Positions 3,935-52,355 of a DNA stretch of 64,000 nucleotides are shown here, in pieces. The notes beneath the pieces were generated by a model. That model was given only the letters and a program-made list of their open reading frames with translations, did no database searches and was not told the origin of the DNA. Each line of letters starts with the position of its first letter. The stretch's first letter is position 1. Made by a program: the position numbers and the translations under genes. The DNA is from Candidatus Melainabacteria bacterium RIFCSPLOWO2_02_FULL_35_15 (lineage in GTDB: Bacteria > Cyanobacteriota > Vampirovibrionia > 2-02-FULL-35-15): contig MFRN01000043.1 of the NCBI GenBank assembly GCA_001784585.1, forward strand, positions 80,966-144,965, written 5' to 3'.

Positions 3935-4108
3935 ATTAGGCGCTGCCTTAGCTATGTTACTAAGTCTCATCTGACTAACTTACAAAGAAAGGTTTTGTCT
4001 GGTTTATCCAGCAAAACCTGAAAAATGACACAAAAGGCAGACTGCGAGCACTTTGCAAAGCCCGACAAGCGAGGTACGAAGCAAGGAGGGCGGTAGGCAA
4101 AAACTAAA

Positions 4109-5216: not shown

Positions 5217-5244
5217 GTAGAGACGTTATGCATAACGTCTCTAC
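5217..5244. promoter_or_regulatory. Perfect palindrome GTAGAGACGTT-ATGCAT-AACGTCTCTAC in the divergent region between the GT9 gene and the rplD operon promoter
   Basis: Read directly. 28-bp perfect inverted repeat immediately upstream of a TTGACA box. Confidence 0.45.
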
Positions 5245-9811: not shown

Positions 9812-9840
9812 ACAAGATTTATTATGCTTTCATAATTAAA

Positions 9841-9868
9841 GGATTTGAGTGGTTTATCCACCAAATCC
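9841..9868 (+). promoter_or_regulatory. Hairpin element A (ggatttg-a-gtgg-TTTAT-ccac-caaatcc)
   Basis: 7+4 bp interrupted stem with a 5-nt loop. Second copy with compensatory stem changes at 3996-4023. Confidence 0.4.
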
Positions 9869-9887
9869 GATCAAACGTAAAGTAAGG

Positions 9888-9923
9888 ACGAAGGAAGCTT
9901 CAGCTTGTCTGAAGCTATAAAAA
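9888..9923 (+). promoter_or_regulatory. SD-hairpin-AUG leader module (GAAGG, then AAGCTTCAG-CTTGT-CTGAAGCT, then ATAAAAA, then ATG) upstream of rplN
   Basis: Read directly. One of four copies with a constant loop and co-varying stem. Confidence 0.55.
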
Positions 9924-17676: not shown

Positions 17677-17712
17677 TTTTTATAGCTCCAGACAAGCTGG
17701 AGCTTTCCTCTC
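17677..17712 (-). promoter_or_regulatory. SD-hairpin-AUG leader module upstream of rpsJ (minus strand: GAGG, AAAGCTCCAG-CTTGT-CTGGAGCT, ATAAAAA, ATG)
   Basis: Reverse complement of 17677-17712 read directly. Same module as at rplN, accB and the acyl-CoA synthetase gene. Confidence 0.55.
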
Positions 17713-17780
17713 GATCTTCCTTTGTGATTGATCACATTTGCCGAATGAATCGGACAAATGCTCTCTCTTTAATAAGCATA

Positions 17781-28108: not shown

Positions 28109-28672
28109 ATGATATCTTCTAATGATTTTAGAACAGGTCAAACAATTCTCTGGAATAACGGTATCTGGACAGTTATTGAATTCCTGCATGTAAAGCCTGG
28201 CAAAGGAGCTGCATTTGTCCGGGCCAAACTTAAAAATGTGGAAAAGGGTAATGTCATCGAAACTACTTTTAGAGGTGGTGAAAAGGTTCCGGTTGCAAAT
28301 GTAGAAAAGCGTGAAATGCAATATCTTTTTAAGACCGGCGATAGAATCACATTTATGGATAATCAGACCTATGAGCAGTTAGAAGTAGGAGAAAGTCAGA
28401 TTGGTGAACCGGTTAAATTTTTAAAAGAAGGCACAAATGTTATGGTCGTATTCTTTGATGAAAAGATTATAGGAATTGATCTTCCTGCACATGTTGAACT
28501 TAAAGTTGCAGAAACACCTCCCGGTGTTCGCGGTGATACTGCTGCAGGAAACAATAAACCTGCTACACTTGAAACAGGTGCTCAGGTTCAGGTACCGTTC
28601 TTTGTTAATATTGGCGATATTGTCAGAATCGATACCAGGACTAACCAATATATCGATCGGGTAAAGGCATGA
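28109..28672 (+). CDS. efp: Elongation factor P
   Basis: MISSNDFRTGQTI.. and KPGKGAAFVRAKLKN (site of the conserved modified Lys). 187 aa. Confidence 0.95.
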   Translation: MISSNDFRTGQTILWNNGIWTVIEFLHVKPGKGAAFVRAKLKNVEKGNVIETTFRGGEKVPVANVEKREMQYLFKTGDRITFMDNQTYEQLEVGESQIGEPVKFLKEGTNVMVVFFDEKIIGIDLPAHVELKVAETPPGVRGDTAAGNNKPATLETGAQVQVPFFVNIGDIVRIDTRTNQYIDRVKA

Positions 28673-28705
28673 AATGGAGGCAGCTTGTCTGGAGCGAAAT
28701 AAAAA
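28673..28705 (+). promoter_or_regulatory. SD-hairpin-AUG leader module (shortened copy: GGAGG, CAG-CTTGT-CTGGAGC, GAAATAAAAA, ATG) upstream of accB
   Basis: Read directly. Same conserved CAGCTTGTCTG core as the other three copies. Confidence 0.45.
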
Positions 28706-29146
28706 ATGAAATTGCCATGGGAAGAGATAGAAGAATTAACCAAATACCTTAGAGAAAAAGGTCTTAGTGAGATTACCATTGAAACAAAAGATGGAAAAAT
28801 TACCGTTAAAAAAGATGCACAGGGAGTAATAAAATCATCTGCCATATCTTCGCAGGAAAGTTCTCAGAAACATAACACTGCAGAACCAGAGACACAAAAA
28901 TCAAAATACTATGAGGTAACTTCTCCAATGGTTGGTACTTTTTATGTATCTTCAAGCCCCGGAGCAGAACCATTTGTAAAAACCGGATCAAAGATAAAAA
29001 CAGGAGATGTCTTGTGTATTATAGAAGCTATGAAAATAATGAATGAGCTGCCTGCTGAAGTAAGCGGTACAGTTAAGGAGATTCTTGTGAAAGACAACCA
29101 AACTGTTGAATATGGACAAGTATTAATGAGACTTGATACAAAATAA
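28706..29146 (+). CDS. accB: Biotin carboxyl carrier protein of acetyl-CoA carboxylase
   Basis: Biotinyl-lysine motif CIIEAMKIMNEL. ~146 aa. Confidence 0.9.
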   Translation: MKLPWEEIEELTKYLREKGLSEITIETKDGKITVKKDAQGVIKSSAISSQESSQKHNTAEPETQKSKYYEVTSPMVGTFYVSSSPGAEPFVKTGSKIKTGDVLCIIEAMKIMNELPAEVSGTVKEILVKDNQTVEYGQVLMRLDTK

Positions 29147-30098: not shown

Positions 30099-31455
30099 TT
30101 TGTGCTGTTGTTAAACTGTGCCTTATCACATCTAAAATTTTCTTAGCCTGAAAAATTTCAATTCTGCTGTTTTGTATTTTTGTATCTATATCAGGAATTA
30201 CAACCTGCTCAAAACCTAATTTTATACATTCTTTTATCCTGTTTTCAATTTGATTTACCTGCCTAATTTCACCCGTTAAACCTATTTCCCCAATAAAAAC
30301 TGTTTTTTTAGACGGGATTACATCCTGCTTGCAGCTAACTATTGACATGGCTATTGATAAATCAAGAGCAGGTTCACAGCTGCTTAATCCACCTACAAGA
30401 TTTACAAATAAATCATGCTTTGAAAAATTAAACCCAACCCTTCTCTCTAAAATTGCAATAATCTGAAGAACCCTATTATAATCAAGTCCGTTAACAACTC
30501 TTCGCGGGGTAGTATACGCCGTCCCGCCAACCAGTGCCTGAACTTCTGCAATAATTGTTTTGCTTCCTTCTACTATAGCTGAATAAGTGCTTCCAGGCAC
30601 CGGGTCTTTATTTTGAGACATAAAAAGGAAGCTGGGATTTGATATAGGTTTTAACCCGGTATCTTTCATTTCAAAAACTGAAATTTCATTCGTACAGCCA
30701 TATCGGTTTTTTGTAGCACGCAAAATCCTGAAATTATGAAATTTTTCTCCTTCAAAATATAAGACTGTATCTACTATGTGTTCTAAAACTTTTGGCCCGG
30801 CAATTAGCCCTTCTTTGTTTACATGCCCGACTAAAATTGTGGTTATGTTTTTGCTTTTTGCAAGATGTAAAATTTTATTTGCGCATTCTCTGACCTGGCT
30901 TACATTTCCGGCTGATGATTCAAGCTCAGGATGATATATGGCCTGGATAGAATCAATGATTAAAAATTCCGGCTTTTCTTTTTCAATTAAATTTATTATG
31001 GTTTCAAGATTATTTTCTGCAAGTAAAAGTAAATTTTCACTGTCCAAATTTAATCTCTGGGCACGGAGTTTTATCTGGTAAATAGATTCTTCGGCGGTAA
31101 TGTAAGCTACTTTTAATTTGTTTGACAAATAATCTGCTACCTGTAATAAAATCGTAGATTTTCCAATGCCAGGTTCTCCTGCAAGCAAGACTAAAGATCC
31201 ATGCACAAAACCACCGCCAAGAACGTTATCCAGCTCTTTATCAAATGATTTAATTCTTTGAACGCTTTGAACGTCTATAGTAGCAGCAGAGCTAAATAAA
31301 TTTTCTGAAGAGTTTAAATTTGATTTTGGCAATTTCTTATAAACTACTTCTTCTATTAAGCTGCTCCATGAATTACATTCAGGACATTTACCAATATAAC
31401 TTGGTGAAATATATCCGCATTCCTGACATGTCCATTTTGATGATATTTTAGGCAT
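30064..31455 (-). CDS. radA: DNA repair protein RadA/Sms
   Basis: N-terminal C4 zinc finger (CQECGYISPSYIGKCPECNSW). RecA-like ATPase (GEPGIGKST). Lon-like C-terminal domain. Confidence 0.95.
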   Translation of the reverse strand: MPKISSKWTCQECGYISPSYIGKCPECNSWSSLIEEVVYKKLPKSNLNSSENLFSSAATIDVQSVQRIKSFDKELDNVLGGGFVHGSLVLLAGEPGIGKSTILLQVADYLSNKLKVAYITAEESIYQIKLRAQRLNLDSENLLLLAENNLETIINLIEKEKPEFLIIDSIQAIYHPELESSAGNVSQVRECANKILHLAKSKNITTILVGHVNKEGLIAGPKVLEHIVDTVLYFEGEKFHNFRILRATKNRYGCTNEISVFEMKDTGLKPISNPSFLFMSQNKDPVPGSTYSAIVEGSKTIIAEVQALVGGTAYTTPRRVVNGLDYNRVLQIIAILERRVGFNFSKHDLFVNLVGGLSSCEPALDLSIAMSIVSCKQDVIPSKKTVFIGEIGLTGEIRQVNQIENRIKECIKLGFEQVVIPDIDTKIQNSRIEIFQAKKILDVIRHSLTTAQTISKPKHNCCP

Positions 31456-32986
31456 GATGATTTTGTGTAGAGGCGTAGTTGGTTAGATAATTGATTAATG
31501 TTCTTACTCCAACGCCTGTCGGTCCTTTTGGTCCATATTCATTTTCTTTATCGATCCATGAAGGACCAGCTATATCTATGTGAACCCAGGGAATATCAGA
31601 AACAAATTTTTCTATAAACACAGCACCATTTTGTGCACCTGATTTTCCTTTTGAACCAGTGTTTATCATATCGGCAATATCGCTCTTTATTTTTTCCCTA
31701 TCTTCATCATATAAAGGTAACTGCCACATTCTTTCACCAGCTTCATTTCCTGCTTTAATAATTTTATCTGCAAGTTTTTGATTATTTGTCATAACTCCGT
31801 TTGCAGTATCGCCTAAAGCTACTACACATGCGCCGGTTAATGTAGCCAGATCAATAATTTCATCCGGCTTTTGTTTTGCTGCATAAGATACTGCATCTGC
31901 CAGTGTTACACGTCCTTCCGCATCAGTGTTTAAAACCTCAATTGTTTTTCCGTTCATGGCACGGATTACATCGCCTGGTCTGTACGCTTTTCCGCTTGGC
32001 ATATTTTCAGCAGCAGCTACTATCATAGTAATTGCTACATCAGGCTGAAGTTCTTTCATAGCACTCATTGTGCTTATTGTTGCAGCAGAACCTGACATAT
32101 CGTCTTTCATGGTTTCCATGGAGTTGGCTGGCTTAAGTGAAAGACCACCTGAGTCAAATGTAATTCCTTTTCCTACAATTACAACATGTTTCTTAGGTTT
32201 TCTTTTTGGCGTATATTTTATTTCAATAAATTTTGGCGGTTCATCACTTCCCTGAGCTACAGCTAAAAATGCCCCCATTCCAAGTTTTTTACATGCAGCA
32301 CTATCTAAAACTTTTATTTTTAATTTATTTTCTTTTGCTACTTTTCTGGCTATATTTGCAATCTTTGTGGGAGTCATGGTTATAGCTGATTCAGCAACCA
32401 TGTCACGGGCAAGGGCCTGTGCTCTTGCTACAATATTTCCTCTTTTTATTCCAGATTCAATATCTTTTAGCTTTGACTTATCAGTTTCAGCAATGATTAA
32501 AGTTTTAATTTCCATTTTAGGTTCTTTTTTATCTTTTGATTTAAGTCTGTCAAACTCATAAAGCGCAAGCTGAGAAACCTCAGTTATAGCCTGTGCTGCA
32601 TTTTTTATATCAATTTTTCCTGCTCCTGCACCATGTAAAATGGTGCAGACTGTTTTTGCTTTTTCTTTTTTAGCACATCTTATAGCAGACGCAGATATCT
32701 TCCTTATACTATTTAAATCAAATTTTTCTTTTTCACCCAATCCTATTACAATAACTTTCTTTGCTGGGATCAAACCATTTGTTCTTATTACCAGAGTAGT
32801 CCCGGCTTTCCCTTTGAAATTTTCTTCCTTTATTATTTTTTTTATTAATCCATTCAACGCAAAATCGACTGCTCCTGTCCCTCCCCATAGAGACGTGCTA
32901 CGACGCGTCTCTACTTCGAATAAATTTAAAATCAATACATCACATGAAATGTTTTCCAGCTTTTGATTTTTTAGAGTTATCTTCAT
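31448..32986 (-). CDS. pepA: Leucyl aminopeptidase (M17 family)
   Basis: NTDAEGRL motif (VLNTDAEGRVTLADAV). ~500 aa M17 architecture. Confidence 0.9.
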   Translation of the reverse strand: MKITLKNQKLENISCDVLILNLFEVETRRSTSLWGGTGAVDFALNGLIKKIIKEENFKGKAGTTLVIRTNGLIPAKKVIVIGLGEKEKFDLNSIRKISASAIRCAKKEKAKTVCTILHGAGAGKIDIKNAAQAITEVSQLALYEFDRLKSKDKKEPKMEIKTLIIAETDKSKLKDIESGIKRGNIVARAQALARDMVAESAITMTPTKIANIARKVAKENKLKIKVLDSAACKKLGMGAFLAVAQGSDEPPKFIEIKYTPKRKPKKHVVIVGKGITFDSGGLSLKPANSMETMKDDMSGSAATISTMSAMKELQPDVAITMIVAAAENMPSGKAYRPGDVIRAMNGKTIEVLNTDAEGRVTLADAVSYAAKQKPDEIIDLATLTGACVVALGDTANGVMTNNQKLADKIIKAGNEAGERMWQLPLYDEDREKIKSDIADMINTGSKGKSGAQNGAVFIEKFVSDIPWVHIDIAGPSWIDKENEYGPKGPTGVGVRTLINYLTNYASTQNHHA

Positions 32987-33138: not shown

Positions 33139-33257
33139 TCCTTGGTGAGGATGCGGCTGGATCACACTCGTTCCCATTCCGAACACGACAGTAAAGACAG
33201 CTAGCAGTGACAATATTTAGATCGCAAGGTCTTGAGAAGATAACCATTCGCCAGGGA
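33139..33257 (+). rRNA. rrf: 5S ribosomal RNA (orphan copy, no adjacent 16S/23S)
   Basis: ~119 nt. The terminal helix I pairs (tccttggtg with cgccaggga). Internal conserved CCCATTCCGAACACG..GTAAAG loop-C region. Own promoter upstream and an intrinsic terminator downstream. Confidence 0.75.
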
Positions 33258-42736: not shown

Positions 42737-45700
42737 ATGCCTCAGACAGTTAAAACCAAAGAAACATACGAATTCCAGAATTCTACTATTGATAAAAAGA
42801 AGCTGTCAGGGCTCATGCTGGAAATTTATGAAAAATATGGTTCTGCCAGAGCAAGCGATGTTGCAGATGCACTAAAAAATTTAGGGTTTCATTTTGCTAC
42901 TAAAGCTGGTGTAACTATAAGTATTGAAGATCTGACAGTTCCGGAAGATAAAAAAGATTTAATTAGTTCTGCAGAAGAGCAGATTGAAGATGCCCAGAAA
43001 AAATTTGAAAGGGGAGATATTACTGAAGTAGAAAGATATAACAAAGTTATTGATACATGGTCTGAGACTACAGAAAAATTAACTGAAAAGGTCGTAGAAA
43101 GATTTAACAGACTTAATCCTGTTTATATGATGGCATTTTCAGGTGCCAGAGGTAACATCAGTCAGGTACGTCAGCTGGTCGGTATGAGAGGTTTGATGGC
43201 TGACTCTCAGGGACAGATTATTGACCTGCCGATTAAAACAAACTTTAAAGAGGGTTTAAATGTTACTGAGTATATTATTTCAAGTTACGGTGCAAGAAAA
43301 GGACTGGTTGATACTGCTTTAAAAACAGCAGACTCAGGTTATTTGACCAGGCGGCTTGTGGATGTTGCCCAGGATGTAACTATTCGTGCTCATGACTGTG
43401 GAAGCAAGAGAGGCGTTGTTGTTCATGCCTTGTTTGAAGGGGAAAAATTAACTGTAGGGATCGTTGAGAGAGTAATCGGACGTGTCGCTGTAGAAGATAT
43501 TATAAGTTTAAAAACCAAAGAAGTTATTGTTAAAAGAAATGAATTAATTGACAGGCAAAAATCCAAACTAATTGAAGAACATGGGGTAGCTTCAGCTAAA
43601 GTCAGATCTCCGCTTGTCTGTGATTTACCATATGGGATTTGTCAAACATGTTACGGCTGGAGCTTAACTACAAATACCATTGTAGACATTGGTGAGGCAA
43701 TAGGCATAATTGCTGCTCAGTCAATTGGTGAACCCGGGACTCAGCTCACAATGAGAACATTTCATACCGGTGGAGTAGTGGCAGGTGCTGCAAAAAGAAA
43801 ACAAATCAGGTCTCCACTAAGTGACATTTTAAAATTTGATATTCCTGTAAAAGAAATCAGGACAAGATATGGAGATACCGTTTTACAAACCACAAAGGAA
43901 GGAAAAATTAAAATTGGAAAAGATGACTTTTTCTTACCTGCAGGTTCACAGATTAGATTTAAGAGTGGAGCCAAAATAGAAAAAGATACAGTTGTTGCAG
44001 AGTATACGGAAATTCAACAAAAGGGTCTTATTGAAAAAGCAACAAAAGATATTATTTCAGATCATTCAGGACAAATTTTGTTTGAAGGATTTAGTGTTGA
44101 TGAAAGAAGAGATCGCCAGGGAAATATTTCCAAAACTGCAAACAAAAACGGAATTATCTGGATTATGGAAGGTGATGTTTACAATCTCCCAGCAGGCAGC
44201 AAGCTTATCCCGGAGGACGGTCAGCATGTAAAGGTAAGCGATATACTTGCAGAAACATTAATTATTTCAGAGCGTGGTGGTGAAGTACGTTTTAATAATG
44301 ATCTTGTAATTGAAGAAGTAAAAGTCGGGAAAGAAAAAATCAAAAGATTAATTCAGGGGCGTGAAGTTAGTATTGTTATAGCCAGGGTTGGTGCAGAAAA
44401 CGCAAAACTGGAAAGCACAAAGCAAGGTAACTCATGGAAAGTAAAAGCTACAAAAACTAATCCTGAAGAACTTTATACCATTAAAGTAGTTCCTGGTGAA
44501 ACCATTGAAAACAAGAGTGTTATTGCAGAGCTTGTGGATGACGGAGTTATGGCTGTTACCACTGCAGGAGAAATCAGATATGACGGACTTGAAGTGGATG
44601 AGTCCAGAATTATTACTCAGCCGGGGAAAATTATTTTTATTCCTGAAGAAGTTCATTATTTAAGTAAGGATGTAAGTTTAAAGCTTGTTGAAAATGAAGA
44701 TCGCGTTAAGGCTGGACAGGAAATTGTAAAAGATGTGTTTACTCACCTGGACGGATTTATTGAGATTAAAGTTGATAATGATATTATCCATGAGGTTATT
44801 GTAAGACCTGGCGAATTATTTGATATTCCGGAACCATCTTTATTAAAGTGTGAAGATGAGGAAATCGTTAAAGAAGGTATGGAAATTTACCCCGGTATAA
44901 AAATAAATGATACAAAAGTTGTAACCCTTATTGAAAACGAAGAAAAAGGAACTGTAAAACTTCTTTTAAGGCCTGTTCAAACATTTGCAATTGAACCCAA
45001 GAAAGTATTTTTCCAGGGATATTCCACTGATAACAATATTGCTTTATTAGCTGTTACACAAATGCTCTATCGTGATGGAGAGAGAGTAAGAAATTTTAAC
45101 GGTGGGCCGCTTTCAAAAACCAGTCTGGTGCTTACAATGGGTGGTGATTTATCTGCCTTAAAAGGGAAGGTTGAAATCGGGAAAATAGTTGATTCAAAGC
45201 AGGAATTACAAATTATAGTTCAGGAAAATATTGTTTTAAGAAGAGAGCAGGATACAAATGTTACCCAGTTATTAATAAATAATAATGATCACATTGCACC
45301 TGGAGTTGCATTAGCGAAGACTCAGGTTTTAGCCAGATCAAATGGTGAGGTAAGCTTAAGTACACAGCAGGAAAAAAGACTGCTCTTAATTACCATTAAT
45401 GATTTAATTAAACAGGAAACTACCATAAAACCTGCTGTAAAAGTTGGTGATTTTGTTAAACTGGGAGATAAATTAGCTGGTGGAACAGAGTCTGCATGCT
45501 CCGGTCAGATTGTATCTGCAGAAAATAAGTCAGTAATAATCAGAAAAGGAAGACCATATCTTGTTAATGCTGGCGCGCAACTTCAGTGTGATCAGGGACA
45601 TTTAGTTCAAAGAGGCGATCAGTTAGCTGCACTAATTTATGAAAGAGTAAAAACTGCAGATATAGTGCAGGGTTTACCGCGTGTAGAAGAATTATTAGAA

Positions 45701-52205: not shown

Positions 52206-52320
52206 TTTGTAGCCTAATTTAGCAACTAATCAGCTAGAATTATATAATCATTATGATGTTTTGTGTAATAAAACTGATCACTAATATATGATTTTGTACT
52301 TGTAATTATCGGAATTGACC

Positions 52321-52355
52321 GACGGAAGCTGCAGCTTGTCTGCAGCATTAAAAAA
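52321..52355 (+). promoter_or_regulatory. SD-hairpin-AUG leader module (GACGGAAG, CTGCAG-CTTGT-CTGCAGC, ATTAAAAAA, ATG) upstream of the acyl-CoA synthetase gene
   Basis: Read directly. Fourth copy of the conserved module. Confidence 0.5.

Follow-up and report, generated by a model that had tools for sequence, protein, structure and literature searches.

The 64,000-nt stretch of Candidatus Melainabacteria bacterium RIFCSPLOWO2_02_FULL_35_15 examined here (contig MFRN01000043.1; hereafter, the window, numbered from its first base) contains the gene pair efp and accB, and the 33-nt spacer between them is the subject of this work. The efp open reading frame (ORF; 28109–28672) encodes elongation factor P (EF-P), and the accB ORF (28706–29146) encodes a biotin carboxyl carrier protein (BCCP) of 146 aa, as identified from the ORF list of the window and the Pfam domains of orthologues. 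After the efp stop codon TGA (28670–28672), the spacer reads AAT, GGAGG (28676–28680), CAG (28681–28683), CTTGT (28684–28688), CTG (28689–28691), GAGC (28692–28695), and GAAATAAAAA (28696–28705), and the accB ATG follows (28706–28708). This is exactly the order given in a first-pass annotation, which described the spacer as a shortened copy of a module made of a Shine–Dalgarno (SD) sequence, a hairpin, and a start codon and suggested the 11-mer CAGCTTGTCTG as its functional unit. We find that the spacer is a copy of a dispersed repeat that has lost its 5′ part and no longer folds. Our preferred reading, which we consider probable but well short of certain, is that it is the relic of a repeat that inserted at this junction and came to serve in the initiation of accB.

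The spacer as a truncated copy of a two-hairpin repeat

Within the window, CAGCTTGTCTG occurs four times exactly, against an expectation of 0.89 even with one mismatch allowed, and none of 100 shuffles reaches the five matches found at that tolerance. All four exact copies lie 15–25 nt upstream of a start codon; the sole one-mismatch match, at 43610, falls inside a coding region and is due to chance. Exact copies are absent from 1.12 Mb of control loci from other phyla (80 loci from an AccB protein scan, which matches via the universal biotinylation motif EAMKIMNE, with no Melainabacteria among the matches listed). The description of the spacer as a shortened copy is borne out: the same module precedes rplN, rpsJ, and an acyl-CoA synthetase gene, ending 7, 7, and 9 nt before the respective start codons, and in these three copies the stems are 7–8 bp long with a variable position altered on both arms. 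The spacer is identical to the rpsJ copy over 15/15 bases (CAGCTTGTCTGGAGC), CTGGAGC is the same in both, and its tail GAAATAAAAA is a tail variant of full copies in locus L196. In the window, the rplN and rpsJ copies also have in common a second hairpin ~30 nt further upstream, which the first-pass annotation did not see. The accB module is thus the 3′ half of a previously undescribed, ~105-nt two-hairpin repeat that is scattered through Melainabacteria genomes.

From 5′ to 3′, the repeat consists of a weakly conserved 5′ end, hairpin 1, GATC, a purine-rich linker (..GGAATTGACC..GGA), hairpin 2 (8 bp, loop CUUGU), and an A-rich tail, and the consensus reads ..AYGnnnTTGCAAnTAT-AGGATTTGTCCGA-TTTAT-TCGGCAAATCC-GATCaagcgAAAGGAATTGACCgAaGGA-AGCTYCAG-CTTGT-CTGRAGCT-ATA(TA)AAAAA. 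A profile built from 55 full copies finds the accB copy at E = 0.006, a value partly inflated by a chance resemblance of the efp 3′ end (28654–28672, CGATCGGGTAAAGGCATGA) to the GATC-linker region of the repeat. That the resemblance is fortuitous follows from the presence of the same sequence in relatives without an insert, such as L203. In the profile alignment, the window reads AATGGAGG and, after a gap, CAGCTTGTCTGGAGCGAAATAAA, where the consensus reads cgaaGGAAGCTTCAGCTTGTCTGAAGCTATATAAA. The 3′ arm of hairpin 2, the loop, and the A-rich tail are retained, as is the same-orientation position a few nucleotides before the ATG. Nothing remains of the hairpin-2 5′ arm or of the parts that precede it in the repeat (hairpin 1, GATC, and the purine-rich linker), and efp coding sequence fills that space.

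This truncation has removed the structure. In the register of the family, only CAG/CUG (three pairs) can form, in agreement with the original description of an outer stem that is partly lost, whereas an 8-bp hairpin-2 stem closes CTTGT in the rplN, rpsJ, and acyl-CoA synthetase copies. It had been suggested that folding of the shorter stem be checked. The RNAfold optimum for the accB copy is a 4-bp helix in a shifted register at −3.6 kcal/mol (z = 0.04), no better than shuffles, compared to −12.8 kcal/mol (z = −4.1) for the intact rpsJ copy.

Table 1. Coordinates of the efp–accB spacer, its parts and flanks, and the other copies of the repeat in the window.
Feature	Position	Strand	Details and basis
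efp–accB spacer, 33 nt; 5′-truncated copy and probable relic of the two-hairpin repeat	28673..28705	+	Sequence, profile match, relatives
Loop CTTGT, the sole sequence invariant in all hairpin-2 variants of the family	28684..28688	+	Variant comparison
Remaining 3′ arm CTGGAGC of hairpin 2	28689..28695	+	Sequence reading; GGAG 28691–28694 unmasked, 11 nt 5′ of the accB AUG, putative SD
Left direct-repeat copy ATGAAAT; contains efp stop and relic ATG	28669..28675	+	Sequence, relatives
Right direct-repeat copy ATGAAAT; accB start	28706..28712	+	Sequence, relatives
Full copy between rpsQ and rplN	9826..9923	+	Hairpin 1 9841–9868; hairpin 2 9896–9916 (AGCTTCAG-CTTGT-CTGAAGCT); tail ATAAAAA; rplN ATG 9924
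Full copy between tuf and rpsJ	17677..17773	-	Hairpin 2 17704–17684 (AGCTCCAG-CTTGT-CTGGAGCT); rpsJ ATG 17676
Linker and hairpin-2-only copy in the 5′ leader of the acyl-CoA synthetase gene	52309..52354	+	GCTGCAG-CTTGT-CTGCAGC 52328–52346; ATG 52356
Solo hairpin-1 copy, intergenic	3976..4018	+	AGGTTTTGTCTGG-TTTAT-CCAGCAAAACC; profile match

To delimit the family, public metagenomes were scanned with CAGCTTGTCTGNNNNNATAWAAA, leaving the 5′ arm and all upstream sequence unspecified. Of 119 loci obtained, 66 share the upstream sequence and have a 5′ arm that can pair with the 3′ arm, while the other 53 are unrelated chance matches with a 3-bp stem only, such as a coding match in L136. In an alignment of 55 distinct full copies, 98.7% of stem cells are paired, versus 84% in column shuffles, and 152 cells carry double changes, versus 36; none of 500 shuffles reaches the observed values, and sliding the register lowers pairing to 19–52%. 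Hairpin 1, on which the search imposed no selection, has compensatory changes in 9/11 pairs. In hairpin 2, all eight stem pairs are preserved by compensatory change, and the outer five are paired in 55/55 full copies. Flanking copies, which are independent of the search pattern, include the inner-stem variants AAG-CTTGT-CTT, CAA-CTTGT-TTG, and GAG-CTTGT-CGA (tandem G.A), and the loop CTTGT is invariant in these as well. Loop and inner stem are both retained in the accB copy and the loop is constant throughout the family, but the inner three pairs covary. What the alignment of copies shows to be conserved is the complete hairpin together with its invariant loop, rather than an 11-mer. Too few cases were available for a comparison of G.U with A.C mismatches to indicate which strand folds.

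A profile hidden Markov model of the repeat matches 148 times across 0.82 Mb of Melainabacteria-like loci but only once in the 1.12 Mb of controls; the copies are mutually related, and such counts do not represent independent events. Searches of Rfam gave nothing at gathering thresholds, the best scores in permissive E-value searches being 18–21 bits against thresholds of 60–90. In a literature search, the element sequence matched only pUC-type vectors and primers, and nothing relevant on repeats in Melainabacteria was found. Next to the solo hairpin-1 copy of the window, a G+C-richer intergenic stretch (within 3935–4108, ..GGCAGACTGCGAGCACTTTGCAAAGCCCGACAAGCGAGGTACGAAGCAAGGAGGGCGGTAGGC..) on its 3′ side looks structured; it too has no Rfam family at the gathering threshold.

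Distribution of the repeat and the efp–accB junction in relatives

Flanking sequence sufficed for the placement of 81 unique copies, of which 35 (~43%) end 5–13 nt before the start of a genuine ORF in the same orientation, with a mode of 10 nt. Of the remaining 46, 9 end 14–30 nt before a start and 37 are not beside any start. For 16/37 gene-adjacent copies, a preceding co-directional gene ends within 60 nt (e.g., rpsQ/rplN and tuf/rpsJ), so that the element fills the intercistronic spacer. Other copies lie directly upstream of tRNA genes (7–12 nt, in L149 and L140), and the element is found before efp in L003 and L199, although not in the window.

The copies away from genes are diverse and include solo hairpin-1, hairpin-2-only, and tandem units. 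Several tandem arrangements are known in the family as a whole: in L155 (4081–4204), a second hairpin-2 unit lies 11 nt after a full copy; L196 (5919–7506) contains three full copies within 1.6 kb; and in L087 (1440–1602), a degenerate copy with a 4-bp stem lies ~110 nt upstream of a full one. Head-to-head pairs are found in convergent 3′–3′ regions, with tails that abut reversed terminators or the 3′ ends of reversed tRNA genes (L094, L168, L108). One arrangement, a solo hairpin 1 followed by a minus-strand and a plus-strand copy head to head, recurs in L094 (3299–3519), L168 (3621–3857), L201 (9659–9879), and L003 (17663–17956). The same stem variants (GACTTCAG and GCCGCAAG) reappear in such clusters on different contigs, in convergent intergenic regions beside terminators or tRNA genes, which suggests that the cluster is itself a larger repeat unit. 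Such a mosaic distribution, in part junk-like, characterizes a dispersed repeat and not a regulon operator.

Comparison of the efp–accB junction among relatives leads in the same direction. Five relatives have no insert: L001 (94–95% nucleotide identity to the window, 1-nt spacer), L203 (88–90%, 2-nt spacer), L204 (80–88%, ATGA overlap), the P0016 contig (81% at the level of the AccB protein, 2-nt spacer), and L003 (72–79%, 2-nt spacer). A full element occupies the junction in L002 (81–86%, 109-nt spacer) and in L100, and the window has the 33-nt stump. The repeat is therefore gained and lost between close relatives. Since the junction is tight in five of them, the tight state appears ancestral, and the element would have entered between efp and accB more than once. 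Loss from most lineages fits less well: the TAA-A-ATG of L001 is not what precise excision from the state seen in the window would produce. Because L001 and L203, the two closest relatives, lack the insert, the stump is young and lineage-specific rather than a conserved minimal element. Import of the junction by recombination from an L002-like allele was considered and rejected, as L001 is the nearest relative over the full length of both genes, and the K-L-P and GATCGGGT states common to the window and L002 are ancestral, being present also in L203 and L204.

The alternative that survives best, although we regard it as unlikely, is that the repeat is immobile and constitutes the leader RNA of a large translation and lipid regulon under one trans-acting factor, the accB copy being a degenerate operator that has escaped control. 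Such a regulon would account for copies in the same orientation before housekeeping genes (rplN, rpsJ, efp, accB, a lysC-like gene, and the acyl-CoA synthetase gene), for the presence of the element before orthologous genes in different lineages, and for covariation of both hairpins around conserved loops, as expected of a bound RNA. It does not sit well with the 37/81 copies beside no gene start, with the clusters, solo modules, and head-to-head pairs in convergent regions and beside reversed tRNA genes and terminators, or with the presence and absence of the element at efp–accB among near-identical relatives. Different hairpin-1 subfamilies precede the same lysC-like gene in L090 and L159, direct repeats flank the copies in excess (see below), and Rfam contains no match. 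An operator for a transcription factor was likewise rejected, as the stems covary instead of conserving half-sites and the loop is asymmetric and strand-specific.

A second alternative, which strikes us as less likely still, is the one originally put forward: that the CAGCTTGTCTG core, a CUUGU loop on a 3-bp stem, is itself functional, for example, as a site for an RNA-binding protein or for rRNA, and is selected before accB while the outer stem decays. CTTGT is indeed the one constant element of all hairpin-2 variants, and loop, inner stem, and tail are intact in the stump. CUUGU is also the complement of ACAAG, a universal sequence close to the 16S rRNA 3′ end; that region is buried in the decoding center, the window contains no 16S gene, and we give this match no weight. 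Against a functional core, the inner stem covaries (AAG/CTT, CAA/TTG, GAG/CGA), so that the 11-mer is not conserved as a sequence, and the outer five pairs, far from decaying, are paired in every full copy, with compensatory changes everywhere. Degenerate stems are rare: among 83 unique copies that retain hairpin 2, only the 4-bp copy of L087 and one of 6 bp were found besides the stump. With a stump that does not fold and closest relatives that lack it altogether, the claim of a minimal functional core is not supported.

Proposed insertion and role in translation initiation

The stump is flanked by direct repeats, ATGAAAT, that are 8/9 identical when the next two bases are included. In L204, the corresponding site is present once (GCATGAAATTACC), with overlapping efp stop and accB start; in the window, the two are now split between the repeats, the left one supplying the stop of efp and the right one the start of accB. 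The point of truncation abuts the left repeat, which suggests that the copy was already truncated at insertion, and flanking repeats abut the truncation point in L084 and L201 as well. Repeats specific to the individual copy and including the start codon also flank copies in L087 (AACATGCA), L090 (AAAAATGC), L100 (ATGAAAA), L110 (TAAAATGA), L147 (AAAAATGA), L175 (AAAGATG), L201 (AATGAAAAG), L084 (AAAATGA), and L003 (ATGAT), with lengths of 5–19 nt across the flanking repeats. Start-codon words of at least 7 nt occur at 10/45 gene-adjacent copies, compared to 4.8 expected from mismatched pairs, and 0/200 shuffles reach 10. These repeats are suggestive of target duplication but do not prove it.

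We propose that the repeat spreads to new sites, often at A-rich start-codon contexts and in the orientation of the gene, and that its 3′ half then becomes the translation-initiation region of that gene. In full copies, a purine tract ending in GA, usually GGA, is followed by the 21-nt hairpin, 6–12 A-rich bases, and the AUG. A spacer this short leaves no room for an SD sequence between hairpin and AUG. The stable hairpin would instead bring the upstream GGA within about 7–10 nt of the AUG, while the A-rich spacer and the AUG would stay unpaired. GGA is present 5′ of hairpin 2 in 24/35 start-abutting copies but in only 13/37 non-adjacent copies (69% vs. 35%; odds ratio 4.0, p = 0.005), an enrichment that, as far as sequence can tell, fits a hairpin-bridged SD site. 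With the module placed between a purine-rich GGA and the AUG, the label of SD, hairpin, and AUG chosen by the first-pass annotation is a fair one for many copies. Copies that end 14–30 nt from a start often have a GGAG of their own in the spacer, and most of those lack the upstream GGA. As rplN, rpsJ, efp, and accB are essential and highly expressed genes that nonetheless tolerate the element, we infer that it must support efficient initiation.

In the lineage of the window, a copy that was probably already truncated would have entered the ATGA stop–start overlap of efp and accB and duplicated ATGAAAT. Because the 5′ arm of hairpin 2 is missing, no bridge forms at accB, where GGAGG lies 25 nt before the AUG without a stable hairpin in between. 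Initiation of accB is most likely driven by the unstructured A-rich leader together with the unmasked GGAG 11 nt upstream. The ATG of the left repeat, which overlaps the efp stop as ATGA, opens a 27-codon out-of-frame ORF (28669–28752, MKWRQLVWSEIKNEIAMGRDRRINQIP) that crosses the accB start, and ribosomes re-initiating after efp could be diverted into it.

Several observations weigh against this reading. Because the core and some of the tail were specified in the scan pattern, conservation of these parts is partly imposed. Stems are intact also in copies away from genes, and hairpin integrity is therefore not maintained by translation alone. GGA is missing from about one third of gene-adjacent copies, and in a crude count, only ~15 of 58 ORFs in the window have GGAG, GAGG, or AGGA at a canonical distance, many starts simply following a run of A (..aaaaaATG). 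With about three-quarters of the genes lacking a canonical SD sequence, the SD bridge may be dispensable, or helpful rather than required, and the hairpin may mainly keep the A-rich start region free of upstream pairing. As for insertion, the excess of flanking repeats is modest when all copies and all words are considered (15 vs. 9.1, P about 0.03), L002 has ATGA only, and A-rich surroundings could produce a 7-nt repeat by chance. Nothing in the loci examined tied the element to a transposase, to a reverse transcriptase (for which no search was made), or to long terminal inverted repeats, nor did a transposase-encoding autonomous relative turn up in these loci, which include no whole genomes of relatives.

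As to how the repeat moves, a more speculative and rather improbable proposal is that it is a retroposon resembling SINEs, or an element of some other type whose copying into the target begins at the 3′ end, with its A-rich tail pairing with A-runs of the target. The targets would typically be A-rich sequence just ahead of start codons or sequence complementary to terminator U-tracts, and synthesis would run from 3′ to 5′, often aborting. Such copying would explain together the gene-parallel orientation, the position before starts, and the tails that abut reversed terminators and tRNA 3′ ends, and likewise the many copies without a 5′ part, the variable start-codon duplications of 5–19 nt, and the truncation of the accB copy at the left ATGAAAT. 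The A-rich tail and the frequent hairpin-2-only copies recall non-LTR retroposons, while the solo hairpin-1 copies do not fit. If correct, each insertion would hand its gene a ready-made initiation region.

Whether the repeat instead acts on transcription was also considered. In this alternative, which we judge to be very unlikely, the repeat is a mobile promoter that supplies −35 and −10 boxes (TTGACC and TATAAA), and the accB stump is a promoter remnant. TTGACC in the linker and TATA(TA)AA after hairpin 2 do resemble σ70 hexamers, some copies lie 7–12 nt upstream of tRNA genes (L149 and L140), and rpsQ/rplN and tuf/rpsJ are classical operon boundaries, as established for the S10, spc, and str operons of E. 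coli. The hexamers, however, are 26–28 nt apart, the −10-like box has no conserved final T, and a scan of three copies against the consensus turns up no promoter within the element. In front of the acyl-CoA synthetase gene, a σ70-like site (52219–52248) with 10/12 matches precedes the element, which therefore falls in the 5′ untranslated region. The distance from element to ATG varies from 6 to 22 nt, 16/37 gene-adjacent copies are intercistronic, and TTGACC is missing from the stump. We also rejected an intrinsic terminator, as the element has no T-run.

Finally, chance resemblance of an unrelated spacer is extremely improbable: an 11-mer with an A-rich tail does occur randomly in very large databases, as the 53/119 unrelated metagenome loci attest, but not readily with an rpsJ copy elsewhere in the window that is identical over 15 nt, a tail variant common to L196, the pre-ATG position of other copies, and a full element at the same junction in L002 and L100.

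Comparison with known repeats and split ribosome-binding sites

On its own, the stump matters little, as it is a decaying copy, although efp and accB, which are translationally coupled in relatives, appear to be uncoupled in the lineage of the window. Of wider interest is the family, a structured repeat with no earlier description, found in a sister group of the cyanobacteria that is uncultured; it repeatedly lands at the start codons of essential genes, including those for ribosomal proteins, EF-P, and BCCP. Its combination of two different covarying hairpins, gene-oriented insertion at start codons, and many 5′-truncated copies is unusual, and its filled and empty sites could serve as markers in the population genetics of Melainabacteria at the level of strains. 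The family belongs in kind with small structured dispersed repeats such as MITE, REP, and BOX, without the full set of defining features of any of these named classes.

Small non-autonomous dispersed repeats include MITEs such as Correia/NEMIS, ERIC, and RUP as well as the modular BOX elements (PMC3184786, PMC2229807, PMC10969869). Like these, the repeat is short (~100 nt), non-coding, multicopy, intergenic, and modular, forms stable hairpins, and varies in presence and absence between relatives; elements of this kind are often co-transcribed with their neighbors, can alter gene expression, and have short flanking direct repeats. It differs in having no long terminal inverted repeats, which MITEs require, only a 5-nt TATAG...CTATA being found beside the hairpins in the consensus. 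It further differs in consisting of two unlike hairpins, each with a conserved loop, in having no parent insertion sequence that we could find, in its strong bias to end 5–13 nt before start codons in the orientation of the gene, and in the frequency of 5′-truncated copies.

REP, BIME, and REPIN sequences are associated with RAYT (Y1) transposases (PMC3733652, PMC8049555). The likeness to these lies in imperfect palindromes with compensatory change, mosaic clusters, and inverted doublets in convergent intergenic regions, and hairpin 1 is often preceded by (A/G)TAG, mostly ATAG and sometimes GTAG, which recalls the GTAG tag. REPs, however, are 20–40 nt long, usually lie 3′ of genes, and cause no target duplication. 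A link to the RAYT-like Y1_Tnp genes of L003 and L163 was rejected, as no copies of the element flank them. These IS200-like genes (L003 4821–5369, minus strand; L163 618–1118, plus strand) are 45% identical to each other, and each contains a perfect 28-nt GTAG...CTAC palindrome in its coding region (L003 5048–5075; L163 877–904). REP is a better fit for a separate family in these genomes, made up of perfect palindromes with a GTAG tag (GTAGAGACG...CGTCTCTA), which is represented in the window at 32888–32914 (minus strand) and, in an intergenic region, at 5217–5244. The former lies in frame inside an M17 aminopeptidase gene (31448–32986), where the window reads LFE-VETRRSTSLW-GGTGAV and the 94%-identical L001 reads LFE-GTKTIS-GGAV. 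Beside this divergent gene, the window also has a 5S rRNA gene (33141–33256, plus strand) without an adjoining 23S rRNA gene.

Highly similar upstream regions before unrelated genes have been described as putative mobile promoters or promoter reuse (PMC3575422). The repeat differs from these in having no credible promoter inside the element and in its many intercistronic copies. In Mycobacterium, the MIRUs of Supply and coworkers (1997) are reportedly intercistronic repeats with small ORFs that overlap the flanking stop and start codons, and the present repeat likewise fills intercistronic spacers of operons in gene orientation. In L100, reading by eye gives a 38-codon ORF that starts at the duplicated ATG, crosses the element, and ends with a TAA 5 nt ahead of accB. 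MIRUs, however, are tandem minisatellites without conserved hairpins. A coding small ORF was rejected as a general feature of our repeat, since the linker contains indels and the frame, as read by eye, differs between L100 and L002.

For the initiation region, the closest counterpart is the split ribosome-binding site of phage T4, where a hairpin reduces the spacing between SD and AUG from 22 to 5 nt in gene 38 and from 27 to 11 nt in gene 25 (PMC3014915). Full copies of the repeat have the same anatomy of GGA, a 21-nt hairpin, and a spacer of 6–12 nt, with a predicted reduction from about 28 to 7–10 nt, whereas the accB stump does not. The T4 cases are single phage genes and ours is a repeat family, in which the SD sequence is only GGA and is found in about two-thirds of gene-adjacent copies. 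The element appears to arrive with an initiation region of its own. Hairpin-bridged ribosome-binding sites, known until now from two T4 genes, would here exist in a natural, portable form, and the family supplies natural variants with which to ask how a hairpin between SD and AUG works.

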